Of a stretch of DNA of 64,000 nucleotides, positions 5,575 through 63,984 are shown piece after piece. Source of the DNA: Candidatus Kaelpia imicola (lineage in GTDB: Bacteria; Omnitrophota; Gorgyraeia; Kaelpiales; Kaelpiaceae); assembly GCA_030765505.1 (NCBI GenBank), contig JAVCCL010000025.1:14865-78864 (forward strand), given 5' to 3'. Position 1 is the first letter of the stretch. Every line of letters starts with the position of its first letter. The notes beneath the pieces were generated by a model. The model was not told the DNA's origin. It saw only the letters and a list, made by a program, of their open reading frames with translations, and did no database searches. The translations under genes and the position numbers were made by a program.

Positions 5575-6954
5575 TTATCTCCTTACAAGATAAGTAAAGT
5601 AAGCCGGGAATGTCTTAAGCAGAGCAAACTGAACATTGCGACTCTGCATAAAGTTCTTCCAGATAAACTCGGAGAAATAGTTCTCAACCATCAGAGCCGG
5701 AAAGATCACATCCATTCCGACTATCCAGTGAGAGTTTACTTCCGGCACACCCTCTCTATCTAAAGAGCCTGCATCCATCGATTCAACCAAAAGACCCGAC
5801 CTATCAAAGGCTTTATCGCGTATCTTATAGAACATTAGGAATGCGGGGTTATCCAAGATGGCATATTCCTGAAAAAATGGCATCGAACCTATTGCTGCAT
5901 AAGGAGCAACCGGCTTAATCCCGTTCTTTGAATTATAGAATCTCTCAGCTTCTCCAGCACCTGAAAGCGCTCCGCCAACTCTATCTCTATATTCCATAAC
6001 ACTTGAACCCATAGAGACCTTAGACCAGCATGCGCTTATACCAAAGATATTTTCTGGATAGTTATTATCAGAACACCATCTAATGTCAGCTAATACAGCA
6101 TCTTTCGTATTCTCCCACCAGTCAACATTGTAAAGGAGATCATTGTCCAACCTTCTAAAATCAATAAAAGCATGAGCAAAGAGGTAAGTAAAGAGTGAAC
6201 CGTACCAGGAATAGACATACTTACGGTCTTTATAGATACCCTCTTTCACTGTAATATTTCCAAAAGAGTCCCTGATATCTATTCTATAATCTACAACAGG
6301 TGAGCCCTGAGCAAGTATTGATATCAAAAGTATCTCATCTGTATAATAGTCCCAAAAACCAAAGAACCCGCTGTTCCAACCCATATGAAACTGCCTTCTA
6401 CCGCTATGAAAGAACTCTCTCCACTCTATATTGGAATAAAATTCATTCGCCTTCTCTCTACACTCAGGATAACCCTGAGATATCAGATATTCAGATGCTG
6501 TGATTATACCTGCTAAAAGAATCGAGGTATCTATTATCGAAACTTCAACTCCGGATTTATGAACAAAACTCTTACCCGATATATCTGGAACATAAAAATG
6601 ATAGAGAAAACCGGAAAAATTCTGACCTTTGGTTTTCTGAAGTTTTAAACAGCTTTCAACTGTCTCTAAAAACATGTCTTTCGCCTTCTCTTTTGAGATC
6701 AAACCTTTTTGAGCAGAGAGAGCCAGACCGGCAAGAGCAAAACCTGAAGTCGCTATATCAACCTCTTTGATGTAGGGCGAACTTTTATAAAGCCCGTTTA
6801 TCCTAAAGAACTTTTGATAGCAATAATTTAACTGCTGAGTCTGAAAATCCTTCAGCATATCTACGGCCTGATAAACCTCTAAATTTGAAGCTAAAACAGC
6901 TCTGACCTGAACTGTTAAAATCAGAGCAACTACTATCTCTCTTAATATCTTCAT
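5575..6954 (-). CDS. Secreted (alpha/alpha)6-barrel glycoside hydrolase-like protein (glucoamylase / DUF3131 / GH144-like, tentative)
   Basis: 459 aa with a signal peptide. The aromatic- and acidic-rich repeating pattern, and a length typical of six-hairpin glycosidases, suggest this fold. The family assignment is by recall only. Confidence 0.35.
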   Translation of the reverse strand: MKILREIVVALILTVQVRAVLASNLEVYQAVDMLKDFQTQQLNYCYQKFFRINGLYKSSPYIKEVDIATSGFALAGLALSAQKGLISKEKAKDMFLETVESCLKLQKTKGQNFSGFLYHFYVPDISGKSFVHKSGVEVSIIDTSILLAGIITASEYLISQGYPECREKANEFYSNIEWREFFHSGRRQFHMGWNSGFFGFWDYYTDEILLISILAQGSPVVDYRIDIRDSFGNITVKEGIYKDRKYVYSWYGSLFTYLFAHAFIDFRRLDNDLLYNVDWWENTKDAVLADIRWCSDNNYPENIFGISACWSKVSMGSSVMEYRDRVGGALSGAGEAERFYNSKNGIKPVAPYAAIGSMPFFQEYAILDNPAFLMFYKIRDKAFDRSGLLVESMDAGSLDREGVPEVNSHWIVGMDVIFPALMVENYFSEFIWKNFMQSRNVQFALLKTFPAYFTYLVRR

Positions 6955-7501: not shown

Positions 7502-7915
7502 TTAAAATAAAACATCCTTGGATTCTGCAGCAGAATAAGCAAGCTTATCCGCCTCTCTATTCTCTTCCCGCAAAATATGATTAAACTCTATACTTTCAAA
7601 ATTATTCAGTAAGTACTTTATATTTACAAGGAGAGGTTTTAAATGTTCCTTCTTTGTCTTATACTCCCCCTTAACCTGCTTAACCAGCAACTCGCTATCT
7701 AAAAACACCTTTAAATCATCTATCCCTAAAAGCAGCGCTTCGGTAAGACCAACGATAAGGGCCAAATATTCAGCAACATTATTAGTACTAGAACCAATGG
7801 GCAGAGAGAGCTCTTTTAAGATAACCCCATGAGAATCTTTGATCACAACACCAACCCCGGCTGGGCCAGGATTACCGCGGGAAGAACCATCTGAATAAAG
7901 CCTAAAACTACTCAT
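7502..7915 (-). CDS. rnhA: Ribonuclease HI-like protein
   Basis: YSDGSSRGNPGPAGVGVV and AEYLALIVGL motifs belong to the RNase H fold. The track ORF extends to 7954, but the likely start is the internal Met (MSSFRLYSDG) at 7915, which overlaps the upstream Zn-ribbon gene by 8 nt. Confidence 0.7.
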   Translation of the reverse strand: MSSFRLYSDGSSRGNPGPAGVGVVIKDSHGVILKELSLPIGSSTNNVAEYLALIVGLTEALLLGIDDLKVFLDSELLVKQVKGEYKTKKEHLKPLLVNIKYLLNNFESIEFNHILREENREADKLAYSAAESKDVLF

Positions 7916-8627
7916 CGAGATAGAATATCCTAGAGCAGCGCTCACAAGTAACAATACTGCTTGCTCTCTTTATCTCATTTATAGTTTGAGGACGTAAACT
8001 TAAATGGCAGCCACCGCAAGCACCATCAACAACTGGAACAATAGCTAAACCATCCTTGCTCTCAATCAATCTTTCATAAATAGAGAGAACCTCAGGGTCT
8101 ACCTCTTGAGCGATTTTGCCTCTCTCTACTTTTTGAGATTGAATCTTCTGTTCAATTACAGCCACATCCTGCTTAACTTTATATTCTTCCTGCTGAAACT
8201 CTTCTTTAAACTTCTTGAACTCATTCTTCTCTCTGTTAAGCCTTAAGTCTATCTCATCCATGCTATCCATTAGCTTCAATATCTCGTCTTCAATGCATGA
8301 ATTATCGGCCTTCTTACCCTCTATCTCACCTAAAAGAGCTTTATACTCTTTGTTCGTCTTTACTTGAAGAAGCTGCTGCTGAAACTTCCGGATCCCCTCT
8401 TCGGCAATCTGGAGTTCTAACTCCTTATCTTTTATCTTAACCTGCAGATCCTTGATCTCTTCTTCAATTCTATCAATCTCTTCTTTTTTCTGATCTAACT
8501 CAAGCCTAAAGTCCTGAAGTTTTTTAGGCATATCCTCTTTACGAAAACTCAAATCACGGAGCCTGGAATCATACCCCTGGAGCTCTTTTAAAAATTCTAT
8601 CTGCTTTTTAAAGTCTTGCACTTTCAT
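7908..8627 (-). CDS. Coiled-coil protein with C-terminal C4 zinc ribbon (COG1579-like)
   Basis: Long coiled-coil followed by CGGCHLSL...CERCSRIF. This family is commonly found upstream of an RNase H-like gene. Confidence 0.6.
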   Translation of the reverse strand: MKVQDFKKQIEFLKELQGYDSRLRDLSFRKEDMPKKLQDFRLELDQKKEEIDRIEEEIKDLQVKIKDKELELQIAEEGIRKFQQQLLQVKTNKEYKALLGEIEGKKADNSCIEDEILKLMDSMDEIDLRLNREKNEFKKFKEEFQQEEYKVKQDVAVIEQKIQSQKVERGKIAQEVDPEVLSIYERLIESKDGLAIVPVVDGACGGCHLSLRPQTINEIKRASSIVTCERCSRIFYLDE

Positions 8628-9895: not shown

Positions 9896-11599
9896 CTAAC
9901 TTAAAGGACTCTTCTTTATATCTCTAAAGACTCTCTCTATTTTTAGCTTACCTCTAGGCTTATTGATATCATCCGGAATTACAATCTTATTGTTTACAAG
10001 AGATGCCCCAATAACACCACTCATCGACTGATGAAACAACCAGCCGGCAGCGCCGGTATACCCACTCCAGATCATACGTCCAACCTCGAAATTAGTAAGA
10101 ATATCAGCCGGCTGCTTATTGGGCTGACCGCCGTAAATCTCTATCTTATCTTCTCCAACATGGCCAATGGGTGTTATCTTACGCCAAAGCCTATAACTGA
10201 TGGCTCTATATTCATCAGCCTTCTTATAGTCACCCAACTTCTCAAAACGCTCTGTGAGAACTCTGGAAGCTCTTATGAGCCACTGTACACCGTGACAATA
10301 CATTCCGTTTTCACGCACCCCCTCAGGATACCTTGAACTCCTTCCAAGGTAAGGCTTGGTATCCTCGCGTAACGCCGGCCAACCAAGCAAAATAACATCT
10401 TCTTTCTCAAGTACTTCCAATGCAGTATGGAACACTATCAACGACCTTTCTAAATTTACACCCGCTTTAACAGCCCAGGCAGCCGTTAAAGCATCTATCT
10501 CCCAGACACCGCTATCTTTTATTCCAATCTCTGTACCGTCATCGTGAATGGCACGTAAATACCTATCCTCTCTCCATGTACCTTCAAGAACATCTTCAAG
10601 TTTCTGCATCTTTCTTAGGTAGTGTTCTTTACGACCATGACCCTCTCTCTTTTCAATTATAGGAAGCATATGCCTTAAAACATAGTAGAGGAAGAACCCG
10701 AGCCATATACTCTCACCCCGCCCTTCGCTTCCTATTTCATCCAGGCCATCATTCCAATCTCCCGTTCTTATCAAGGGTATTCCATGTTCTCCCAATCGTT
10801 TTTCTAAAATAAGATCTATAGATCTTAAAGCATGCTTATAAACAGAATCTGCTCTGGTTGAACGATGATAGATATGACCCCAGCCTGTCTTATTATGCGG
10901 CAAATCGGCAAACGGAAACTCTGACCATACATATGATGTCATTTCATCCAATAACGAATAATCACCGGTAGTCCTAACATACTCTACAATGGCCCAGGGA
11001 AGCCAGAGCGGGTTATCTGAAGCATGGGAACGACAGGCAAAAGCAGTTCTGCCATCAAGCTGAGTAAAGAACCAGTGATAGACATCGCCTTCGAAGAATT
11101 GATGAGAAGCATGGAGAATAATCTGCTTTCTAGCCAGCGCAGGGTCTACCCAAATAAGGTTTACAGAGTCCTGAAGCTGATCCCTGAAACCATAGGCTCC
11201 GCTTGTTTGGTAAAATCCCCTCCGAGCCCAGATTCTCTCCGCCAAAGCTTGATATTTAAGCCAATTTTGATAGCGATCAAACTCAACTTGATTCGTCTTC
11301 ACCTCTACTGTTCCCATTAAATTCAACCACCAACTACGCGTATTATTAAGACTCTTCTTAACATAATCCAAACTTTTATACTTTTTGGCTAATTTAAGTG
11401 CTTTATCTCTCTTATCTGTCTGACCAAGAATAAATGCGATTGTGTAATCTCCGCCTGCAGGAATATCCAGGGTGCTTAAAAGGGCTGCTATCTGTCTATC
11501 ATCGTAGAGCTGAGCATTGTCAGCCTCACCCTTCTCTACCATAAACGGATGAGTTATACCTCTACCCAAACCAAAGAATCTCCCCCTCTTTGTCTCCAC
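9896..11599 (-). CDS. GH94 catalytic (alpha/alpha)6 domain (cellobiose phosphorylase / cyclic beta-1,2-glucan synthase C-terminal-like); probably the 3' part of the upstream gene
   Basis: RGRFFGLGRG and SGAYGFRDQLQD are GH94 signature blocks. The reading frame stays open upstream of the GTG start as far as 11638, and it overlaps the 3' end of the 1519-aa ORF in a different frame. Confidence 0.6.
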   Translation of the reverse strand: METKRGRFFGLGRGITHPFMVEKGEADNAQLYDDRQIAALLSTLDIPAGGDYTIAFILGQTDKRDKALKLAKKYKSLDYVKKSLNNTRSWWLNLMGTVEVKTNQVEFDRYQNWLKYQALAERIWARRGFYQTSGAYGFRDQLQDSVNLIWVDPALARKQIILHASHQFFEGDVYHWFFTQLDGRTAFACRSHASDNPLWLPWAIVEYVRTTGDYSLLDEMTSYVWSEFPFADLPHNKTGWGHIYHRSTRADSVYKHALRSIDLILEKRLGEHGIPLIRTGDWNDGLDEIGSEGRGESIWLGFFLYYVLRHMLPIIEKREGHGRKEHYLRKMQKLEDVLEGTWREDRYLRAIHDDGTEIGIKDSGVWEIDALTAAWAVKAGVNLERSLIVFHTALEVLEKEDVILLGWPALREDTKPYLGRSSRYPEGVRENGMYCHGVQWLIRASRVLTERFEKLGDYKKADEYRAISYRLWRKITPIGHVGEDKIEIYGGQPNKQPADILTNFEVGRMIWSGYTGAAGWLFHQSMSGVIGASLVNNKIVIPDDINKPRGKLKIERVFRDIKKSPLS

Positions 11600-14500
11600 A
11601 CCCTCAGAGAGAGTTGAGCTTGAAACAAAAGCCAGCCTTTACGGAACATATTACGAGGATTATAGAATAAAAGGACATCATTATCTTTGTCATAGCTTAT
11701 CAATAACTCACCTGAGCGCTCAGGCATAAACTCAAGCACCATCTGGAAATAAGGAGCAATGCGGAATCTTTTTTTACGGCCGCTATTGTTCTTTATTTTC
11801 AAAAGATATACACCTAAAGGGTCATCCGGCGGTACAAAAACTGTAAGCTCGGTTGAAATATCCTTTCCTTTCATATGAAAGACCGCACTGCCATCGACAC
11901 TGAACTCAGAGATATTTTTGACACTATTATCATTAAGCGGAAAATAGGTCGGAGAGTACCAGCTCTCTTCATCTATATCGTATAGATATATCGCCTCTCC
12001 GGGAATCTCTCTTGTAACCGTATCAGGCCAGTCTGGAGTCAAGCGGTTCTGCTGAGAGTTACCATTACAAGATGTATGAAGACCGCGATTTGTAACCATA
12101 ACAGAGTGCCCCAGAGAGTTAGACATAGCATGGTCATAAGGTCTGGGAGTATAGGGAGTACGGACTAAAATTTTGTTTCCATTATCCATATATTCAGAAT
12201 AAGGCTGCGGTGTTCCGGGAAGAATCTCTCCATGACCGATAAGTAATCTCTTCTCTCTCCTGGGTTCATAACCTACGGCAGTCTGCTTAGGTTGTAACAG
12301 TCTCTTCACCAGATCAAGAGCGCCGTTACGGCTCTCCTCGTATCCAATCATAAGATGTATAGTCTTAGAAGAGTTAGGGTCGAGCTCCACGTTAAGCATA
12401 AGACTCCCAATCGGGTCAAATGTCGGATAACGCTCGGTATTCTCGGCCTTCATGAAATCTAAAGTCTCAAGCACTCTTGGATTCCAGATGCTCTGAGCAC
12501 GGCCAATGAAGTCCATTCTGGAAAATAGAATACCTTCGGGGGAAATGTCTGTCGCTAAAATACCCATAGAGTTAGTACATTTTTGCCAGGATAGAAGTGT
12601 ATTAAAACCATTGATATACTCCATCTCAGGAAATAACCGCGCATACTGAGTATGGAACCTGTCATGCAAACCTCCATTAAGCACCCACTCTAAGTAGGGA
12701 ACAACTTTTAAATTACGCTTGCTATCTTTAAGGTTTTTAATATTTATCTTCCATATCTCCGCCCTGCTCTCCTGATCAGATAAGGTTATATCAATAGTAG
12801 TTTTAATGCCGTTTGAAGAGTTGATAACTTTAAGAGAATCTGAGTTCATCTTGATCTCAGAAGGTTGAAACTTATCTTCCGGAAAATTACCCACTACAGG
12901 CCAATAGCGCTTTTCAGCATCGGCAGAGTTGTCAACTAAATACAGAATTCTACCGCAAGGATCTATAATATCGTAAGAACGTCTGGTAATATCATATTCC
13001 GGAGGATAGACGCCACTCTTCCTGTGGTCAACCTGACTATATATCTCTCCATTCTCCTTAAGAAATGTCCTGTACCCAACTCTATTGGCTATATGGTAGG
13101 TCTTTATGAATCTCTTTCTTGAACGCCGTCTAAAAGAACGGACCAAAAACGATATTCCGCTAAAAATAAAAACAGCAACAAAGAATGATAGCAACCTCTG
13201 GTATAGAACAACACCTTCTAAGAAAGCAAAAATACCTCCTCCAAGAGAATCACGTATAGCCGCTGATCTACTCCAGGCATAATTCCACTCCTCACCTCTT
13301 GGGAGATAAAACGGAATTAAAAGAGGGCCCCAGGTACAGAATCTTTTAACCGCTTCCGGAATGTAGCGTTGAGCTGTATCTATTTTGATAAACCGCGCAA
13401 CTTTATCATCAAGCTTATCCAGTCCTATAAAACTTAAGTTGACCAACGTTGCGACACGCAGACCCATATGGTCCATCCAGATAAGAACCCTAAAGAAATC
13501 AAAAGCAAGTACATATACAAAGAGATTAAGGCTCCACTGTCTAAATGCCTGATCTGACATTGTTAAGTTATGATATATAGCAGAGAGCGTACGAATAGCT
13601 CCATCCTGATTATACCAGGTTGGATCCGGCATCATCCGCAAAAAGGTAAATATAATTGGCGACATCCATAAACCCCAACGCAAAACATATATCATATGTT
13701 CTATAAGCTGAGAGAATCCTTCTCTTGAGAAGAAAAATTTAATTGGTGCCTTATGTTTTTCAAAAAAAGCAAGAAGAAAGACTTTATTTATGGCAAATAA
13801 CCAGGCGGCTATAGCCCAGTTAATAACTCCGGCAAGCGATTCATCAAACAATAATCTGACTCCGCCGCGATAGATTCCCAGATCTATCCGCCCCCACTTA
13901 TTGACTAAAGGGTATGTAATATATTCCATAGCTTTAAACCCCGAGCTTGTATACAGCTTGAACTTCGCTACAACAACAGGGACCTGTAAAGCATCAAGAT
14001 AGAAAGCCAACGCACTACCAATAAAAACACCTATGATAGCATCGACAAAATACCGTCTCCAGGATTGAATTCGCCCCTGAGATTTAAATCTATAGGCAGC
14101 GTCTCTTAAAATACTTATCCCTGCAGATGAGAAGATACCAAAGACTGCACCAAATATAACTCTGCCCGACATATTCCAGTTAATAAAATCACTGCTTAAA
14201 GCATAGGCAACCCCTATGCCTAAAATAGCTCCTCTTGCATAAAGCACATGGTCACGATAGCTGTAACGTGCCCTCTGAAAAAAAGGCAGGCTACCATCAA
14301 AAGTCTCTATAATGGTTTTAAACAACGGTAGGGCCAGTGCCCCGATAAAAATACCCAAAAGAAGGGGAATCTTCTCTGCCGATAGTTGCAATAGATTAAA
14401 ATCCAGGAGCAGATAGATTGAGTACATGAACCCCATTAGAAGAGCACTGTAAGCCATTCCCTTTTTTACGCCTGTCTTTACATGTCCAGTCACGCTTTCC

Positions 14501-16113
14501 CATGAAGGAGCTACCCTGCGTCCGTAATCAAGAGCCATCCCAGTTAAGAAATAGACCACCCCCCACAGTCCTGCAAAAGAGAGCATGCTCGTCAATATAA
14601 CCACAAATATCTTAACCACTTCAGGCAGAGATTCAACTCCGGCAGTAGAACCTAAGTTCGCAATCATAGGCGCAAGAACAACACCGACAGAGATAAATAA
14701 AATAAAGAGATGAAGCTTGCGTTTTTTAAGCAGTTCTCTCTTAACAACTAGGCTAAAACTATTGGCAATAGCCTCATTAAATCCAAATATAACAACAACT
14801 CTGCCCAAGGATTCTAAAAACCACCTAAATGAAGACAAAAACCCTAAAGTCAACACATTACCCAGTTGCTTAAGAAGTACCGGGGTCTGCAAAACCATTA
14901 ACCAGTTAAGAAGAAAAGGTGTTAAGATGATAGAGAACCCTGTAAGAGCCCTGACGTGCTTACCACCAATTGCTAAAGAACGTGCATTGGACACCTGGTA
15001 GATTAAAAAGATGATTACTGCAGCATATTTATTTAACATTAGAACCTGACCAAAGGTAGAAGGAGCGAATAGAATACCTAGCTTGCTTGAAGATGCAGCT
15101 AAAAGCCCGACAATTAAGATGTTCTTGAATACCTGAAAAGGACTAAGATGCCTGCCTATAATTGTAAATTTAAGCAATTCTGCAATGACCGCACCCATCA
15201 AACTCAAAAAGAGAAACTCCAAACTGAAACCCTCATTTAAAGGGCAGATTGTACCAAGATAGCATATCCCAAAAGCAACCGCAGCTATTAATGTAAATGT
15301 CGACCCATAAAGCAAATCCTTTTTCACTTTAGTAAGAATAGAATTATCTGAGGAGTTGGATTTAACCCTAGACTCTGAATACCTTTCTATAGACCTTCTC
15401 TTCAGCAGTTTAATCACTGAATTAGCAAAAAAACCTACAATCGCACTCAACAAGAGAACTATAGCCAACCTAAAGAAGATATAATTTTTATGCAGAAAAC
15501 TCTGTTTATAGAACTCAACATCAAAGTATAGAAAACCCTCTAATGCTTTATCTCCTGAAGCACCTCCAGAGGCAATAATCTCTTCCGCACTAGATATGGT
15601 AGTTACAACAAAACATACCTCTCTGAGATCACCTATTGTATTCCAGGCAACCTCCTCCCTGAAATATTTCCAATCATTCCTGAGATCAAGAGGTATCGAT
15701 TGCATAGCGTTAGAACCTTTGATCTCCATCTTTACAGAGATTTCTTCCAACTGCTTTTTATTGGGCGCCTTGAGGGATATTTTAACAGCATCTACGCTAT
15801 CTTTGCTCAAACTGGCAGGATAGTCTTTTGTCCATACCCCTACGATAGAACCTTGAGGCAACCAGTATTTAAACCTTAAGACATCCTTATCTATGACTTT
15901 GTCAAATACTCTGTCTGTTGAACCCAGCGCAACACCGATATTGAACGTTCCTTTTTGATTCGAATCTAGAATGCCGAAAGAGCTATCAACACTAGAAAAC
16001 GCCGGGAGAGAGAGAAAGAATGAGATTAAAAAAACTGTGATTATTCCTGGATAGCAATTGCATTTTCTACAAAGTATCTCTTCTATTCTCATAACTCTAA
16101 ACATTTTAAGCAA
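11554..16113 (-). CDS. Large polytopic membrane protein with C-terminal GH94 N-terminal beta-sandwich domain (NdvB/Cgs-like, but lacking a recognisable GT domain)
   Basis: 1519 aa. It has an N-terminal signal/TM segment, a periplasmic domain of about 160 aa, and roughly 800 aa of repeated TM helices. Its C-terminal 450 aa resemble the N-terminal domain of GH94 enzymes and continue into the downstream 567-aa ORF after a frameshift. Confidence 0.5.
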   Translation of the reverse strand: MLKMFRVMRIEEILCRKCNCYPGIITVFLISFFLSLPAFSSVDSSFGILDSNQKGTFNIGVALGSTDRVFDKVIDKDVLRFKYWLPQGSIVGVWTKDYPASLSKDSVDAVKISLKAPNKKQLEEISVKMEIKGSNAMQSIPLDLRNDWKYFREEVAWNTIGDLREVCFVVTTISSAEEIIASGGASGDKALEGFLYFDVEFYKQSFLHKNYIFFRLAIVLLLSAIVGFFANSVIKLLKRRSIERYSESRVKSNSSDNSILTKVKKDLLYGSTFTLIAAVAFGICYLGTICPLNEGFSLEFLFLSLMGAVIAELLKFTIIGRHLSPFQVFKNILIVGLLAASSSKLGILFAPSTFGQVLMLNKYAAVIIFLIYQVSNARSLAIGGKHVRALTGFSIILTPFLLNWLMVLQTPVLLKQLGNVLTLGFLSSFRWFLESLGRVVVIFGFNEAIANSFSLVVKRELLKKRKLHLFILFISVGVVLAPMIANLGSTAGVESLPEVVKIFVVILTSMLSFAGLWGVVYFLTGMALDYGRRVAPSWESVTGHVKTGVKKGMAYSALLMGFMYSIYLLLDFNLLQLSAEKIPLLLGIFIGALALPLFKTIIETFDGSLPFFQRARYSYRDHVLYARGAILGIGVAYALSSDFINWNMSGRVIFGAVFGIFSSAGISILRDAAYRFKSQGRIQSWRRYFVDAIIGVFIGSALAFYLDALQVPVVVAKFKLYTSSGFKAMEYITYPLVNKWGRIDLGIYRGGVRLLFDESLAGVINWAIAAWLFAINKVFLLAFFEKHKAPIKFFFSREGFSQLIEHMIYVLRWGLWMSPIIFTFLRMMPDPTWYNQDGAIRTLSAIYHNLTMSDQAFRQWSLNLFVYVLAFDFFRVLIWMDHMGLRVATLVNLSFIGLDKLDDKVARFIKIDTAQRYIPEAVKRFCTWGPLLIPFYLPRGEEWNYAWSRSAAIRDSLGGGIFAFLEGVVLYQRLLSFFVAVFIFSGISFLVRSFRRRSRKRFIKTYHIANRVGYRTFLKENGEIYSQVDHRKSGVYPPEYDITRRSYDIIDPCGRILYLVDNSADAEKRYWPVVGNFPEDKFQPSEIKMNSDSLKVINSSNGIKTTIDITLSDQESRAEIWKINIKNLKDSKRNLKVVPYLEWVLNGGLHDRFHTQYARLFPEMEYINGFNTLLSWQKCTNSMGILATDISPEGILFSRMDFIGRAQSIWNPRVLETLDFMKAENTERYPTFDPIGSLMLNVELDPNSSKTIHLMIGYEESRNGALDLVKRLLQPKQTAVGYEPRREKRLLIGHGEILPGTPQPYSEYMDNGNKILVRTPYTPRPYDHAMSNSLGHSVMVTNRGLHTSCNGNSQQNRLTPDWPDTVTREIPGEAIYLYDIDEESWYSPTYFPLNDNSVKNISEFSVDGSAVFHMKGKDISTELTVFVPPDDPLGVYLLKIKNNSGRKKRFRIAPYFQMVLEFMPERSGELLISYDKDNDVLLFYNPRNMFRKGWLLFQAQLSLRVWRQRGGDSLVWVEV

Positions 16114-16254
16114 TTAAAACAACTGGATTCCCAACAACCCCCCCCATCTTAAGCAATACTCTACATGGAGTCATTATTGTATAATATATTTTCAAAGAAT
16201 GCAAATATAAATAGCTATTAAAAGAATACCTCTTATATGAAAACGAAATACCTC

Positions 16255-17703
16255 TTACCTTGGTATGTAATGGTGCAACTCAACCTCTCCATTTTTGGTC
16301 ACAAAATATCTCGACATTTCTAAATCAGATTTAAGATAGAGATATCTCTTTAAAAATCTATCCGCTTCAATAGCAAGTACACCTCCAACCCACGGAAGCT
16401 TTGAGTTCGACCAAACTATATACCAAATTCCCGACTCTTTATCTATGGTAGGCATACCGCCCAAACCTATTCCTGCAACTGTGCTCTCTCCATCGTAATA
16501 ATAACTGAAAGCACCGAGTGAAAAATCAGGCAATAACCAGATTTCATCCTGAATAGACTCATTCTCCTCAATATAATCTGCAATATTACCCCATGCGCTT
16601 TTTGGAATCTTAAAATATAAAATAGTATCATTAATATAAAGGCAACCCCAAAGAAGAATAAACAGCATTGCTATTTTTTTGCTTCTCTCATAAAGTCTAG
16701 CCATGGTATCTCCCCAACCTATAGCTATAAATGGCAGTAGATGAAAGAAGTATCGGGATTCAAACTTATAGCTTAAAGATAAAGATAGAAAAGAAACCAG
16801 CATCAATGTCAGACCAATTCTTTTGTGCTCTTTAGATAACTTTAGTAAACCAAATACAGACAATATCGCAAATAGAACAAATATAACAAAGTAAATCAAG
16901 GTCAAACTATAAGGGAGATCATAGAAACTCATTTCAGAAAAACCGGTTATATCCTTAAAAAATCTCAGGACCCAACCAATCATGTTAAGCAGCTGTGTCT
17001 TTAAAGCAAACTGGTGCTTGAGATAATAGCACTCCATCTCTATATTAAGAGACCGAGACAATATTGAAGAATATAAAAACAGGAAAGGAATCAAAACAAA
17101 TATAGTCAAAAAAGATATCCTCCTATATATCTTGTTTTTAAACTTAAAAAAAAGGAAAGACAGCACTCCCAGATATGGAATTATACAAACGCTGCCATTG
17201 AGTAAGAACAAAAAAAGCGAACAGGAATAGAGAATAGAATATCTTGGGTAATCTTTGATAATCTTAATTAGAAAAAAAATCCAAAGACAGAAGAACAGTA
17301 AAGCCGCTGAATACATCCTTACCTCTTGAGCAAGAGTTAAACCGTATACTGAAAAAGAGAAGATAAATAGAGACCAGTGCCTTGCAATATTTGCTTTCAG
17401 CAACAACTTGCTTATATTAAAAAAGACTATTAATGAAAATATAGATGGAATTAAAGAAGGTAGGCGCAAAGAAAATTCTGAATCTCCAAAGACCATAATC
17501 CAAAATTTTAAAAACAGAAAGTAGAAAGGAAAATGGCCTGCATAAATTCTATCTGCCCAAATATTGTTTAAAGACAAGAACTTTGCTATATACCAACTAG
17601 TCCCCTCGTCTATCCACAGAAAATGAGTCTCTAACTTATGGAACCTTACAGCTGCTGCAACTATTATTATGACCGCAGGCAGATACCAAGCATCTCTTCT
17701 CAT
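16255..17703 (-). CDS. GT-C fold membrane glycosyltransferase (PMT_2 / ArnT-like), paralog of the 360-1952 gene
   Basis: 482 aa. LWIDEGTSWYIAKF and FSLRLPSLIPSIFS parallel FWYDEAMSIALAR and FYLRLPSLLFSAVS in the first GT-C protein. It has many TM helices. Confidence 0.6.
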   Translation of the reverse strand: MRRDAWYLPAVIIIVAAAVRFHKLETHFLWIDEGTSWYIAKFLSLNNIWADRIYAGHFPFYFLFLKFWIMVFGDSEFSLRLPSLIPSIFSLIVFFNISKLLLKANIARHWSLFIFSFSVYGLTLAQEVRMYSAALLFFCLWIFFLIKIIKDYPRYSILYSCSLFLFLLNGSVCIIPYLGVLSFLFFKFKNKIYRRISFLTIFVLIPFLFLYSSILSRSLNIEMECYYLKHQFALKTQLLNMIGWVLRFFKDITGFSEMSFYDLPYSLTLIYFVIFVLFAILSVFGLLKLSKEHKRIGLTLMLVSFLSLSLSYKFESRYFFHLLPFIAIGWGDTMARLYERSKKIAMLFILLWGCLYINDTILYFKIPKSAWGNIADYIEENESIQDEIWLLPDFSLGAFSYYYDGESTVAGIGLGGMPTIDKESGIWYIVWSNSKLPWVGGVLAIEADRFLKRYLYLKSDLEMSRYFVTKNGEVELHHYIPR

Positions 17704-58621: not shown

Positions 58622-60382
58622 TTAATTCGCTCCCAAGTCTTGAAGAATAAGATCTAATACTTCTATTACATCATCTATTACATCATCTACATCATCTATT
58701 GATAATGGAGGAGTGATCAAACCATTTAAAACAGCTTCTTTTATCATTAGAATTGCTTGCTCCTGAAGCTCTTCAAGATTATCTCCTGCTATAGATTCCA
58801 ATGCTTTATCAAATTCCATCTCATTAGCAGCCGGGATAATCACAGCCATTACCTCATTTGTCATTCCTAAATCAGCATGCATGATATACTTAACTGTCCA
58901 TTCTGAAAATTCCATTATATTTGTCAAAAAATCCTCTAGCGGCATTTCCGCTATGTTTGCAATCTCTTCACTGTATAGACTTAAAAAATAACTCTGACCA
59001 TCAGCTATGGTTATATTAAACACACCGCTTAACTGCTCATCAGTCAACAAGCCTAAAGAAGCAAGATATGCTCGGGCTACGGCTTCTCCTCCATTATCAA
59101 GCGCTAACCTGTAACCATTGATATGGTCTTCGCTTAACCCGTAACTTGACAACTTACTTCCCTGATTTTTCAGAATTCCCAATCTATTGTCTGCAAGATA
59201 TGCCTCATCTATAGCTCTGTATTCTTCCACCGCTTCTTCAGCCCAATCCTTAACTGTATTAATTCTCGCAAGTACTGAAAATTCCTGCAATTGTTTTTTA
59301 ACTTGATTCGCTATTAGAGAAGTATTATTGGGAGGAGTTCCAGGATCTGGAGAAGTTCCAGGATCTCGAGGATTACGCTGGGCGGCAGGATTAGCAGGAT
59401 TAGCAGCAGCAGGATTTAGTAAATTTCCATCTGCATCATAAAGATGATAACTAATTTGGTCCCCAGTTACAGGATCATAAAACATATCTACGGAAGCAAC
59501 GGTGCCAGTGGAATCTTTCACTTCAGCTGCCGTAATATTATTTCTTTCCGTATCAAACCATCGTACTCCTATCATAGACTCTAAACCCCATATTTCCTCT
59601 CCATTTTTCTCAACAATAACATCTCTTCGAATTTCTGAAGTGAAAATAACCAGACCACCAGCATCTTGTGTTATATCAAAAAATTGACCCTCTCTTGTCC
59701 CTGAAGTTCCATTATAAGAATCTTCGTTAAATAGCGAATACTCCTCTAATAGTTTAGACACAGTTGGTTCTTGCCCAGCTTCCGTTGGTTCCACCGTTGT
59801 TGTTTCTTTTTTTCGCATATAAACCGGTTCTAAGCTACCATCATTATTGATGTCTCGCAAAACAGTAAAAGTCTCAGTAGTAACAGTATAAGCAGGATTA
59901 GTATCAGTAGCAGCATGCGGCTCCTTAATCTCATTTGTAAGAACAATATCTTCTTCAGTGAAATCAGGGACACTTTCCGGTTTTATTCCACTATCAGGGA
60001 ACTCTGAAATCTGAGAAATTAAGGCTTTCAAATCATCACTATACTGTTTTGCAGCATTAAGGTCGCTAAAATGTGCTACTTGGACATTATCTGGGTCTAT
60101 ACCATTTCGCAGAGCTGCAGCTTTAACAGCACTCATTATAGGATCATCTTCTGCTACATCGACAAAGGTTGGTGGTGCCGTCTCTGCTGGCGCTGCTTCT
60201 GGAGCTTCTTCCTCTGGTAGTGGTGCTGGTACTGTTTGCGGAATATATTCGTAGGGGTCGCCAGAATAATAACTACCGCCATAATAGTAGCCATCCGCTA
60301 TATTGCTAAAGAAAATCGGTAGCAAGAGAAATAAACTTGCTATTAAAATCAATCCTGTGTGTTTTTCTTTAATTTTTTCCAT
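58622..60382 (-). CDS. Secreted hypothetical protein with Pro-rich linker
   Basis: N-terminal signal/TM segment and a low-complexity PEEEAPEAAPAETAPP / NPAAANPANPAAQ region. No family recognised. Confidence 0.4.
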   Translation of the reverse strand: MEKIKEKHTGLILIASLFLLLPIFFSNIADGYYYGGSYYSGDPYEYIPQTVPAPLPEEEAPEAAPAETAPPTFVDVAEDDPIMSAVKAAALRNGIDPDNVQVAHFSDLNAAKQYSDDLKALISQISEFPDSGIKPESVPDFTEEDIVLTNEIKEPHAATDTNPAYTVTTETFTVLRDINNDGSLEPVYMRKKETTTVEPTEAGQEPTVSKLLEEYSLFNEDSYNGTSGTREGQFFDITQDAGGLVIFTSEIRRDVIVEKNGEEIWGLESMIGVRWFDTERNNITAAEVKDSTGTVASVDMFYDPVTGDQISYHLYDADGNLLNPAAANPANPAAQRNPRDPGTSPDPGTPPNNTSLIANQVKKQLQEFSVLARINTVKDWAEEAVEEYRAIDEAYLADNRLGILKNQGSKLSSYGLSEDHINGYRLALDNGGEAVARAYLASLGLLTDEQLSGVFNITIADGQSYFLSLYSEEIANIAEMPLEDFLTNIMEFSEWTVKYIMHADLGMTNEVMAVIIPAANEMEFDKALESIAGDNLEELQEQAILMIKEAVLNGLITPPLSIDDVDDVIDDVIEVLDLILQDLGAN

Positions 60383-61403: not shown

Positions 61404-61868
61404 CTATTCATATACTTCCATCTCCTTTTCGCAGCGCTGAAGAAAAGTAAGAAACCACTTTGGAATATTGTATCCCAGCTTCACGGCTTTGTTATAACCC
61501 TTCTTTGCCAATTCTATACTTGGTTCTTCCTTCTTAAGATAAGCCACAGCTATAGCATAATTGGCTTTTGGAGAGTCAGGGTTTAATTTTAAAGATTGAT
61601 TAAGCGAATTTATCGCTTTCTCAAAATTGCCTTCTTCCATATAGCATATCCCTAATTCACGCCAGGCTTTGGCATATTCAGGATTAAGTTTTAAAGCTTC
61701 CTCAAAGCAGTTTTTTGCCTTAGCAATATCTCTATTTATATAATGCAATCTGCCTGATTTAAAATATTCTCCTGATTCTTGAGCTGCTGCTGGTTTTTGC
61801 AAAAATGCTGCAAAACCTATTAGCATTAGAAGAAGACCTATTGAATTAAATTTCTTTTTAAGTTTCAT
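61404..61868 (-). CDS. TPR repeat protein with signal peptide
   Basis: Three TPR-like units (AKNCFEEALKLNPEYAKAWRELGICY...). Confidence 0.65.
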   Translation of the reverse strand: MKLKKKFNSIGLLLMLIGFAAFLQKPAAAQESGEYFKSGRLHYINRDIAKAKNCFEEALKLNPEYAKAWRELGICYMEEGNFEKAINSLNQSLKLNPDSPKANYAIAVAYLKKEEPSIELAKKGYNKAVKLGYNIPKWFLTFLQRCEKEMEVYE

Positions 61869-63984
61869 TATGCCACTCGTCTATTTGTTCAATTGCAATT
61901 TCTAATGCATCCTCAAAGCTCATACCATCATTTTCTGCCATAATATCTGCAACATATCTTGCCCCATCAATAAGAACAGTCATGTCATCATATATATTAA
62001 AGGAACCGTAATAAGATTCAACCGCAGCCCTTAATCCCTCATCATTCAAAGCCTTATAGACATTTCTTCCGTATTCTAAGGCCTCTTGATAAGAGAGATC
62101 ACCTCTTAGATTGCTAACGATAGAAGTATTTATTGCTTCACCTAAACCGTCATATATAATCCCCAATGTTAGAGCAATAGTTATTGCATCTGATGAAGAA
62201 TCTCTATATATCTCTAACGACTGAATAAGCTGACCGAAACTGTTGTATTTTATCTCTTCCTTATGAATATGAGTAACAATACCCGGGGCTACGGAACTAA
62301 CTCTATCTTCATCATATTCTATTACTTGACCCCAAGAATTATACTGTGTGTTTAAACGAGTTATTGTAGTAGTAACTCCTTCTGTAGTAGTTGTCTGAGT
62401 ATAGCTAAGCACACGGCCGTTATCATCATATACCATATCAGACATTTCTAACATCACAGTCTTAGACTGATCTGAAGCAAGGTGGTCTATGGTAGTAATC
62501 TCTTCGGTATAACCTGTAACCTGCTCTAACTCGTTGTAAGTAGTACTTGATCTATTCGTTGTTGTAGTCGTATCTATCTGATGTACTACCCCCTCTTCAT
62601 CAGTATAACTTCCATATCTATGAGTAACTTCAGTATAAGTCGTGCTTAAACCTGAATCCCATTCATCCTCTTCCCAATCCCACACAGACGGCTGATTATA
62701 ACTTATGTTAGTTTTTTCAACGATTGTAGTTAAATCCGGAGCAGCTGAATTATGGATAGTCTCATAAGAATATACCGTCTGACCATCGACAGAATCTCTT
62801 TCAAACTCCGTAGTAATTACCAGGTCAGGATTGGCCTCATCAGTTGTAACCGAAGTACCTGTAGTATGGCTTTGATTACTCTTGGTGCCGCATTCCGTCT
62901 GAACTCCATACCCGTCATAAGTAGCTTTCCAATCAGTCTGAGAACTACCGCTAGAACTATAGTCTGATACAGTCTTTCTACCGGGATATCCTGCATAAGT
63001 AGTAGTAGAGTGTCCTGTACTATTAAATGTAGAACTGCCTTCATAGCTTATCATCTGCCCTAAAGTGTTGTACTTCATATTGGTAACAACGCTGTGGGAG
63101 CTGCTCGTAGATGTAGTCACGGTTGTTTGTGAGCCGTCTTCACTGGTATCGGTATCACTTCCTGAACTCGTACTATCTGAAATATATCCAGTTCTCTGCC
63201 CGTAAGAATTGTAAGTTATACCGTATGTATGAGAGGTATATTGATTATCCTCGGTATCAATTCCGCTCTCATTATATTCAATTATTTGATTCAGCTTATT
63301 ATAGCGGATATTGGTTCTATCAAAAGAGTATGTTCCATCCTTATTGCTGCCTTCTTCATGATAGCTGCTCTTATTACCATTCTCATCATATATTATATTG
63401 GTTATACAAGACTCCCTATGTTCGTCCTCACCATCGTAAATCTCCGTATAGCCGGTAACTTGATTATTATCATTAAAACTGTTATAGATTCTCTCTAAAG
63501 TATAATGGTTGTCTAACCCCTCTGATGCACCCTCATCCGGAAGACCTACTGCATGCCCCTCTTCATAATAACGGACTACTCTATCAAAAATCTTCTCATC
63601 GTACTCAACCTCTATATGAGCATATACAATCTTATCCGGTGTAGTAGAATCATATCTTTCCTCATCCCAACTGATCTCCCGGCCTTTGCTATCATAGCGA
63701 ATATTCGACTTTATCGTCGTAACAAACCCTTCTTCACCTTCATCTTCCTGTTCACTATCTTCTGATTGTTCTCCCGAATCACCCTCTAAAATAGGCTGCA
63801 TCTTTTGATCATCATTACCGCTGCTCACCGGAAGCCGCCCTTCTCTATCGTTACTCTCTTCAGACTCTTCTGCAAAGGATATAACACTATTAAATAAAAA
63901 TAACACTACTATAACATTCGCAATTATTACCAAATATTTATATCCATTCTTATCCATTTTTTCGTAAAACCTATTCGCCTTCAT
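61858..63984 (-). CDS. YD-repeat (Rhs/teneurin-like) secreted protein with S/T-rich linkers
   Basis: At least 12 repeats of the form xxYDxxG(R/Q)xxxY (IRYDSKGREISW, IIYDENGNKSSY, ITYNSYGQRTGY, MKYNTLGQMISY, MVYDDNGRVLSY, TQYNSWGQVIEY, IKYNSFGQLIQS, IIYDGLGEAIN) and an N-terminal TM/signal segment. Confidence 0.5.
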   Translation of the reverse strand: MKANRFYEKMDKNGYKYLVIIANVIVVLFLFNSVISFAEESEESNDREGRLPVSSGNDDQKMQPILEGDSGEQSEDSEQEDEGEEGFVTTIKSNIRYDSKGREISWDEERYDSTTPDKIVYAHIEVEYDEKIFDRVVRYYEEGHAVGLPDEGASEGLDNHYTLERIYNSFNDNNQVTGYTEIYDGEDEHRESCITNIIYDENGNKSSYHEEGSNKDGTYSFDRTNIRYNKLNQIIEYNESGIDTEDNQYTSHTYGITYNSYGQRTGYISDSTSSGSDTDTSEDGSQTTVTTSTSSSHSVVTNMKYNTLGQMISYEGSSTFNSTGHSTTTYAGYPGRKTVSDYSSSGSSQTDWKATYDGYGVQTECGTKSNQSHTTGTSVTTDEANPDLVITTEFERDSVDGQTVYSYETIHNSAAPDLTTIVEKTNISYNQPSVWDWEEDEWDSGLSTTYTEVTHRYGSYTDEEGVVHQIDTTTTTNRSSTTYNELEQVTGYTEEITTIDHLASDQSKTVMLEMSDMVYDDNGRVLSYTQTTTTEGVTTTITRLNTQYNSWGQVIEYDEDRVSSVAPGIVTHIHKEEIKYNSFGQLIQSLEIYRDSSSDAITIALTLGIIYDGLGEAINTSIVSNLRGDLSYQEALEYGRNVYKALNDEGLRAAVESYYGSFNIYDDMTVLIDGARYVADIMAENDGMSFEDALEIAIEQIDEWHNET

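Follow-up and report, generated by a model that had tools for sequence, protein, structure and literature searches.

The DNA considered in this study, referred to below as the window, is a stretch of 64,000 nucleotides from Candidatus Kaelpia imicola (contig JAVCCL010000025.1). On its minus strand lies a gene that joins a phosphorylase module of family GH94 to a large membrane domain and a predicted periplasmic module, a new and widespread architecture that apparently includes a new membrane fold. The gene is broken in the window by the loss of one base. It was repaired by putting back one G, and residue numbers throughout are those of the resulting protein of 2,072 residues, with the TTG at 16113 as codon 1. 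The features of the locus are these:

9896..16113, minus strand: the whole locus, a single ancestral gene of 2,072 codons from TTG 16113 or 2,065 from ATG 16092
11554..16113, minus strand: upstream open reading frame (ORF), 1519 codons, TTG start
9896..11599, minus strand: downstream ORF, 567 codons, GTG start
15994..16092, minus strand: probable start ATG 16092 and predicted Sec-type signal peptide (residues 8-40, MRIEEILCRKCNCYPGIITVFLISFFLSLPAFS), from the sequence and a hydropathy peak at residues 24-42
15499..15987, minus strand: predicted periplasmic beta-sandwich of CBM11-like fold, residues 43-205 (AlphaFold2 model, pLDDT 94.2)
13108..15498, minus strand: polytopic all-helical membrane domain, residues 206-1002, about 17 spans and a kinked hydrophobic helix
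14290..14307, minus strand: ETFDGS motif, residues 603-608, invariant, at the predicted cytoplasmic end of transmembrane helix (TM) 11
13264..14016, minus strand: most conserved core of the membrane domain, residues 700-950, from conservation over 40 full-length sequences
13600-13620, minus strand: core motif TWYNQDG, invariant
13456-13473, minus strand: core motif DHMGLR (DHMGLR.AT.VNLSF), invariant
13111-13131, minus strand: stop-transfer cluster RRRSRKR, just before the first GH94 beta-sandwich
12190..13107, minus strand: first beta-sandwich of GH94 (N-terminal, GP1-like), residues 1003-1308, probably the second stretch of Pfam PF06165
about 11632..11634, minus strand: one-nucleotide deletion, where TGG (W1494) and GCT (A1495) read TGGCT in the window (GGG to GG)
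11423..12132, minus strand: GH94 supersandwich (GP2-like), residues 1328-1564, best stretch of PF06165, cut by the frameshift
11558-11578, minus strand: motif FFGLGRG, present
11168-11185, minus strand: motif RDQLQD, invariant in 40 sequences
10748-10759, minus strand: DWND (residues 1786-1789) of the motif GDWNDG, invariant in 40 sequences
10007..11332, minus strand: GH94 catalytic (alpha/alpha)6 domain, residues 1595-2036, PF17167, E 1e-62

A preliminary description of this DNA treated 9896..16113 as one long coding region. The coding is indeed on the minus strand, but the interval measures 6,218 nt, which is not divisible by three, and it holds two ORFs in different frames, which excludes a single ORF; the frameshift had been missed. 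In a six-frame translation the GH94 sequence passes from frame 0 (...NPRNMFRKGW) into frame -1 (AFVSSSTLSEGVETKRGRFFGLGRG...). The closest relative, L003, comes from a metagenome-assembled genome (MAG) labelled just 'uncultured Planctomycetia' and is 85% identical in amino acids. A blastn alignment to it has exactly one gap, at which L003 reads TGGGCT and the window TGGCT. Past the deletion the upstream frame adds 26 codons and stops at 11554-11556, and the homolog P0002 is uninterrupted across the site (...NPRNMFRTGWAFAS...). The start is probably the ATG at 16092 (MRIEE...) and not the TTG at 16113, since both the NCBI gene model P0001 (Ca. Kaelpia imicola) and L003 start at this Met.

The fusion is not peculiar to the window. 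When one genome per species was scanned, the membrane domain turned up in 68 loci, and at 39 of these a single stop-free ORF of 1,996-2,562 codons carries both the membrane-domain motifs and the DWND motif of GH94. Thirty-nine independent genomes with the fusion as an intact ORF exceed what chance would give. At a threshold of E<=1e-3, the membrane-domain profile matches 510 representative clusters (50% identity) among 1.84 billion proteins, of which 210 remain at E<=1e-30. The members come chiefly from Omnitrophota MAGs, with others labelled Elusimicrobiota, Planctomycetota, Verrucomicrobiota and Auribacterota. A short form of 1,650-1,870 aa, lacking the signal peptide and the periplasmic module, occurs in Hyphomicrobiales; a search for a cultured host of this form turned up only MAGs (Beijerinckiaceae, Roseiarcus, Methylocystis).

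Among the 150 representatives listed of the 510, the membrane domain of long proteins (at least 900 aa) nearly always continues into GH94 or to the end of the contig. The exceptions (P0011, P0016 and P0019) are shorter and end in unaligned tails, and these long proteins offer no clear case of the membrane domain standing alone or in another fusion. The same GH94 Pfam domains are present in all six homologs scanned. To judge from these sequences, the union of membrane domain and GH94 appears to be obligatory.

The status of the break in the window bears on this copy only. Compared with L003, dN/dS is 0.059 in the part of GH94 upstream of the break and 0.049 downstream, and no second lesion was found in the 575 codons downstream. 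With dN/dS equally low on either side, the break is, on this evidence, either very recent or an artefact of assembly. One possibility, though a doubtful one, is that the frameshift is no assembly error and that the copy either became a pseudogene recently or yields two polypeptides. The frameshift is present in the deposited MAG, where the NCBI product of 1512 aa ends in the shifted frame, and a run of two or three Gs is shorter than those in which homopolymer sequencing errors typically arise. Moreover, about 8 of some 50 homologous loci likewise have a stop or a change of frame, at a different position in each. The low dN/dS and the absence of a second lesion speak against this explanation, as do the lack of a slippery heptamer at the site and the intact gene in 39 relatives. 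Programmed frameshifting is excluded: the site lacks a slippery heptamer, the 39 relatives are unshifted and other loci are broken elsewhere.

The interrupted homologs (L002, L008, L022, L047, L051 and L062) are probably errors in MAGs, yet their frequency deserves mention. In L002 (14700-14730, the gene of P0003) an in-frame TAG (PLNDYSAKNE*EFGVDG) replaces a sense codon of the relatives, and the gene in L062 has four changes of frame. In L001, the ENA contig carrying P0002, the match to GH94 ends after residue 1577 and a 606-aa minus-strand gene (14589-16409) reaches the end of the contig; a rearrangement that truncated the gene, an insertion and a chimeric assembly are all possible causes.

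The C-terminal ~1,070 aa of the repaired protein (residues 1003-2072) match PF06165 (GH94_b-supersand, E 1e-65, in two stretches) and PF17167 (Glyco_hydro_94, E 1e-62). The best-scoring stretch of PF06165 is residues 1328-1564, and the second is probably residues 1003-1308, which align only weakly with Cgs 1550-1807 (i-Evalue 2.8, not significant by itself). The preliminary description had recognized GH94 from motifs, which could be located; the Pfam matches bear it out, and the module is moreover of the type found in the cyclic glucan synthase Cgs. Its best match in PDB is the phosphorylase (GP) region of Agrobacterium tumefaciens Cgs/NdvB (8rf0/8rf9, residues ~2034-2760, E 2e-99, 337 bits), and the cellobiose phosphorylases are much more distant relatives (E 1e-34, 121 bits). 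Besides RDQLQD and GDWNDG, the invariant motifs of the catalytic domain in the family include YPEGVRENGMYCHG and GGQPNKQPAD. GDWNDG aligns with GGDWNDG of Cgs, and FRDQLQD is identical there; the catalytic acid of the Cgs GP region is D2528 (PMC10901819). The catalytic motifs of the module are intact, and phosphorylase activity is predicted; the preliminary description had also suggested a transglycosylase.

The other parts of a cyclic glucan synthase are missing. The preliminary description had seen no GT-A or GT84 domain, and none was found. Pfam and NCBIfam give no such match in residues 1-1050, and the AlphaFold2 model of residues 202-1002 is helical and lacks a Rossmann-like sheet. Pfam run on 40 family members and a profile searched against PDB sequences were negative as well, and together these results rule out a hidden glycosyltransferase (GT) domain. 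Nor is there a match to PF10091, or any other match, that would indicate a cyclase (GH144-like, GH189) inside the protein; PF10091 proteins are encoded by separate genes and have signal peptides. Because it has neither a GT84/GT-A domain nor a cyclase domain, the fusion protein is not a cyclic glucan synthase. Members of the family carry the automated labels 'cyclic beta-1,2-glucan synthetase' (JGI) or 'hypothetical protein'. The former is wrong as a statement of membership, since the protein lacks both GT84 and a cyclase and shows no detectable likeness to the parts of Cgs outside GH94.

The remaining ~1,000 aa consist, as had been described, of a signal peptide, a module of about 160 aa assigned to the periplasm and many transmembrane helices, and give no hit in Pfam or NCBIfam. 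Neither the membrane domain nor the periplasmic module has a family model in Pfam (models to 2025) or NCBIfam (2026). The architecture had been taken to be uncharacterized, and no description of it was found in the searchable literature: a search for GH94 joined to such a membrane domain returned papers on Cgs only, and the paper naming Ca. Kaelpia makes no mention of the protein.

The membrane domain was modelled with confidence by AlphaFold2 (residues 202-1002, alignment of 50 sequences, pLDDT 91.6, pTM 0.89), with helices throughout and a sole beta-hairpin at residues 729-748. Foldseek found no match to the model among 350,542 PDB chains (best E 0.4; TM-score at most 0.13 by query and 0.20 by target), though the method is weak on large all-helical membrane proteins and the search covered PDB structures, not relatives among predicted structures. 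A profile of 40 membrane-domain sequences had no hit among PDB sequences, Cgs included, at E<=10, and phmmer against the same sequences gave just a chance match to Cmr5 (E 0.75). Pfam applied to 40 family members at E<=1 gave nothing consistent in this domain. No internal repeat was detected when the domain was compared to itself by hhalign (best off-diagonal E 0.056, probability 1%). Homology to the transmembrane helices of Cgs, to transporters or channels, or to GT-C enzymes was considered and set aside, no similarity having been found (Foldseek against PDB, best E 0.4).

Conservation within the membrane domain climbs toward its C-terminal third, and over the 40 sequences residues 700-950 match the level of the catalytic domain. 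This core has 11 invariant Trp, as well as invariant D, E, R, H, N and Q on both predicted faces. Its motifs, besides those listed above, are YLD..Q, KFKLY, WG, GVINW..AAWLFAIN, LRWGLWM.PII and KRF.TW.PLL.PF..PRG. Some polar invariants (D881, H882, R886, N776 and N892) lie within predicted helices, while ETFDGS (603-608) and an RD pair (670-671) are located in loops rich in K and R. The preliminary description had allowed that the region might serve to anchor a phosphorylase. A role as mere anchor is unlikely, and the domain is better regarded as functional, because its dN/dS against L003 is 0.098, its core is conserved like the catalytic domain and its model is confidently all-helical.

The periplasmic module has the fold of a carbohydrate-binding module (CBM). 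Its best Foldseek matches in PDB are to CBM11 (6r3m, 1v0a and 6r31; E 3e-7, probability 1.00, TM-score 0.56-0.60), followed by CBM22, CBM4, CBM27 and CBM61. It shares the beta-jelly-roll fold of CBM11, the module of Clostridium thermocellum Lic26A-Cel5E (1v0a/6r3m), but just 12-13% identity, and Pfam finds no match, PF03425 being absent even at E<=10. The module is therefore a CBM by fold but not to be filed in the CBM11 family. Homologs have one, two, three or four tandem copies. The fold and this amplification up to four copies lead me to predict that it binds glycan in the periplasm. Its homology with the N-terminal or small CBM11-like proteins of the operon described below is unsupported (hmmsearch, 0 hits; hhalign, E 0.19).

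The density of lysine plus arginine, taken as the mean of 40 sequences, alternates over the first 14 spans between 0.11-0.34 inside and 0.02-0.06 outside, and is maximal (0.36) in the tail behind the last helix, which contains RRRSRKR. This pattern would place the CBM-like module in the periplasm, its signal peptide presumably cleaved, and GH94 in the cytoplasm, although the parity of the last spans is ambiguous. If GH94 is cytoplasmic, then one of the four hydrophobic elements past TM14 must span the membrane incompletely. The likeliest candidate, from the sequence, is the kinked helix of residues 854-909, which bears DHMGLR. Were this helix not to span fully, much of the conserved core would face the periplasm or the outer leaflet.

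Other family members provide more of a genomic context than the window does. In about 13 loci (including L017, L019, L030, L032, L048, L054 and L061) the fusion lies within a same-strand operon, in the order response regulator, histidine kinase, a protein of ~205 aa, an SGL-clan protein (~770 aa), a TPR protein (~610 aa), the fusion, a second SGL-clan protein (~688 aa), two MalFG-type permeases, a 258-aa membrane protein, a ROK regulator and an M48 peptidase. The ~205-aa protein clusters with the SGL proteins, and its member in L001 has a precomputed hit to PF03425 (CBM_11). The N-terminal stretch of the ROK regulator looks by eye like a helix-turn-helix, with no Pfam hit for that stretch. The TPR protein is YfiO-like. 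Overall, SGL-clan genes adjoin the fusion in 19 loci. The short form of proteobacteria stands alone, and no GT2 or GT84 gene was found beside those copies. No conserved glycosyltransferase gene was found beside the fusion in the 68 loci, and none of the GT2 or GT84 type among the window ORFs scanned (nine flanking the gene and nine larger ones elsewhere, most ORFs being unscanned).

The neighbours in the window are mostly housekeeping genes (inositol monophosphatase, ProS, IspG, RseP, Dxr and H+-PPase). One feature, 3 kb downstream of the fusion, is of another kind:

5575..6954, minus strand: secreted protein of the SGL or beta-1,2-glucanase clan (PF10091, E 1e-28), signal peptide seen in the sequence

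Its best matches in PDB are the beta-1,2-glucanases XcSGL/XCC2207 (8xul, 4e-24) and CpSGL (5gzh, 2e-10). Taken together, the neighbours point to beta-1,2-glucan and to a context that looks catabolic.

Several other observations concern the surroundings of the gene. Directly upstream lies a PMT_2-like candidate for a polytopic glycosyltransferase (16255-17703, minus strand) of the GT-C type, like ArnT or PMT, with an E of 5e-5 that is below the Pfam cut-off; its position is kept only in the closest relative, L003. A second PMT_2-like candidate is at 360-1952 on the plus strand (E 5e-14). An RNase H/RVT_3-like ORF (7502-7954, minus strand, 150 aa, TTG start) shares 47 nt with the end of a gene for a CT398-like coiled-coil zinc-ribbon protein (7908-8627, minus strand), and the same pair follows the fusion in L003 and L055. 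Giant ORFs adjoin the fusion in L035 (upstream, minus strand, 2,614 aa) and L066 (upstream, plus strand, 2,611 aa), from Omnitrophota/Auribacterota. Between 3 and 30 kb of the window nearly all ORFs of at least 100 aa are on the minus strand, and between 22 and 64 kb so are all listed ORFs of at least 150 aa, save one that overlaps minus-strand ORFs. All 2-kb bins have a negative GC skew (-0.09 to -0.30), and the window fits one long co-oriented segment of a replichore. GC content falls to 0.30 within the first 4 kb. Two large minus-strand ORFs, 58622-60382 (586 aa) and 61858-63984 (708 aa), gave no match to Pfam at E<=1e-5.

What might such a protein do? I tentatively favour a single inner-membrane protein in which a CBM-like module, a new membrane domain and a cytoplasmic GH94 module couple the import of beta-1,2-glucan to its phosphorolysis, a proposal for which I infer the substrate, the topology of the last spans, the conduit function and the direction. 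The periplasmic module would catch a glucan chain, and the Trp-rich, strongly conserved membrane domain would conduct it across the inner membrane. The GH94 site would then take glucose units off the non-reducing end with phosphate (Pi), releasing glucose-1-phosphate (Glc1P) into the cell, so that uptake and activation of the sugar would be coupled without ATP. Cytoplasmic ratios of Pi to Glc1P normally favour phosphorolysis. Import is preferred over export because of these ratios, the importer permeases, the ROK-type regulator, the secreted endo-glucanases and the tandem CBMs, which are typical of substrate capture. In mechanistic terms the protein would be a phosphorolysis-driven polysaccharide translocase, performing group translocation of a polymer by way of a new membrane fold (its reverse would be a synthase-exporter independent of nucleotide sugars), and in this more specific form I regard the idea as possible but doubtful.

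A number of points weigh against import coupled to phosphorolysis. The beta-1,2 specificity is suggested only by similarity to the Cgs GP region and by neighbouring genes, and many members, including the window copy and the proteobacterial short form, lie outside the glucan operon. That operon already has ABC importer permeases, so that a second route of import is less obviously needed. The parity of the last spans is ambiguous by sequence, and simple counting, which gives 18 spans, would place GH94 outside. CBM-like domains also go with synthases such as BcsB. Finally, the frameshift may leave the gene inactive in this MAG.

The same parts could be read in the opposite direction, as a GT-independent glucan synthase-exporter, in which the CBM-like module guides the outgoing glucan and secreted enzymes of the SGL/GH189 clan trim or cyclize it, with an outcome like that of Cgs or OpgH. 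I consider this unlikely. In its support, the closest relative of the GH94 module belongs to a synthase, Cgs, and the PF10091 neighbours are in the clan of the Cgs cyclase domain (PMC10901819; PMC12102758). GH94 enzymes are reversible and make beta-1,2-oligoglucans from Glc1P in vitro (PMC3960220). The histidine kinase and response regulator genes of the operon could reflect osmoregulation, and the lone proteobacterial form resembles a self-sufficient synthase. On the other hand, the solved SGL-clan homologs matching the window's neighbour are hydrolases, and catabolic loci typically contain importer permeases of the MalFG type and a ROK repressor-type regulator, as this operon does. Phosphorylases require a primer, and the Pi/Glc1P ratios lie, as a rule, on the side of phosphorolysis.

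About as improbable is a membrane-tethered phosphorylase and nothing further, with GH94 degrading oligosaccharides imported by the ABC system and the rest of the protein acting as anchor, sensor or scaffold without any passage of sugar; it might, for example, hold polymer near the secreted glucanases or regulate GH94. The operon does contain a complete pair of ABC permeases, and the membrane domain has neither detectable similarity to transporter or channel folds nor the internal repeat of many transporters. Yet ~800 aa and ~17 spans go far beyond the needs of an anchor, and the core is conserved like a catalytic domain, with polar invariants in predicted helices. Among the long representatives listed, the domain hardly ever, perhaps never, occurs apart from GH94, there is no output domain, and the short proteobacterial form retains it without CBM or operon partners. 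That the protein partners a glucan synthase encoded by a separate gene, controlling its chain length (as the preliminary description also proposed) or acting as its scaffold, is very improbable: although the GH94 domain of Cgs trims chain length and also scaffolds (PMC10901819) and the module here is of the Cgs type, no conserved GT2 or GT84 gene accompanies the fusion in the 68 loci, among the scanned ORFs of the window or beside the proteobacterial copies, where the short form stands alone.

GH94 phosphorylases have so far been known as soluble enzymes or one module of the giant Cgs, and the fusion represents a third, widespread architecture. If the protein does conduct glucan, it would couple polymer transport to phosphorolysis in a new way, a class of mechanism undescribed for glycan transport. 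It would be relevant to energy-limited anaerobes, possibly to host-dependent Omnitrophota feeding on the periplasmic glucans of other bacteria, and could give biotechnology a Glc1P-driven route to beta-1,2-glucans. Even if the membrane domain conducts no glucan, it is a well-modelled, apparently new membrane fold open to testing.

Of the known systems, Cgs/NdvB is closest, its GP region being the nearest solved relative of the fusion's GH94 (~740 aligned residues). Both proteins are in the inner membrane, with GH94 presumably cytoplasmic, and both are linked to beta-1,2-glucan. In Cgs an N-terminal domain, GT84, six transmembrane helices and a GH144-like cyclase are combined with the GH94 region, and every soluble domain is cytoplasmic (PMC10901819). 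The fusion, in contrast, has a signal peptide and periplasmic CBM-like modules, no N-terminal domain of that kind, no GT84 and no CY/GH189, and its ~17 transmembrane helices are unrelated to the six of Cgs. It also has no space for a Rossmann-like insert between GP1 and GP2: by their lengths, GP1 (1003-1308) directly abuts GP2 (from 1328), and the RFL insert of Cgs is apparently absent.

The 1,2-beta-oligoglucan phosphorylases called SOGP (Listeria innocua Lin1839 and L. phytofermentans LpSOGP) share the catalytic machinery of GH94 and likewise place an additional N-terminal beta-sandwich ahead of the supersandwich; the layout GP1-GP2-GP3 is given for both Cgs and LpSOGP (PMC10901819). Their loci, like those of the fusion, contain SGL glucanases, sugar ABC transporters and regulators. 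Unlike the fusion, they are soluble cytoplasmic enzymes of ~1,100 aa, without membrane or periplasmic parts. No SOGP chain appears among the PDB sequence hits of the GH94 module at E<=1e-3, and SOGP is therefore more distant from the fusion than is the GP region of Cgs.

A likeness of a conceptual sort may be drawn to the membrane-integrated processive glucan synthases BcsA-BcsB and OpgH (GT2), where, as in the fusion, a polytopic domain is attached to a cytoplasmic module that transfers glucose. BcsB guides the chain by means of carbohydrate-binding domains of jelly-roll fold in the periplasm. The fusion, however, has no GT-A fold, no D,D,D,QxxRW motifs and no fold match in PDB. BcsA-BcsB and OpgH are UDP-glucose transferases, whereas the cytoplasmic enzyme of the fusion would, by its GH94 class, be a phosphorylase working on Pi and Glc1P.

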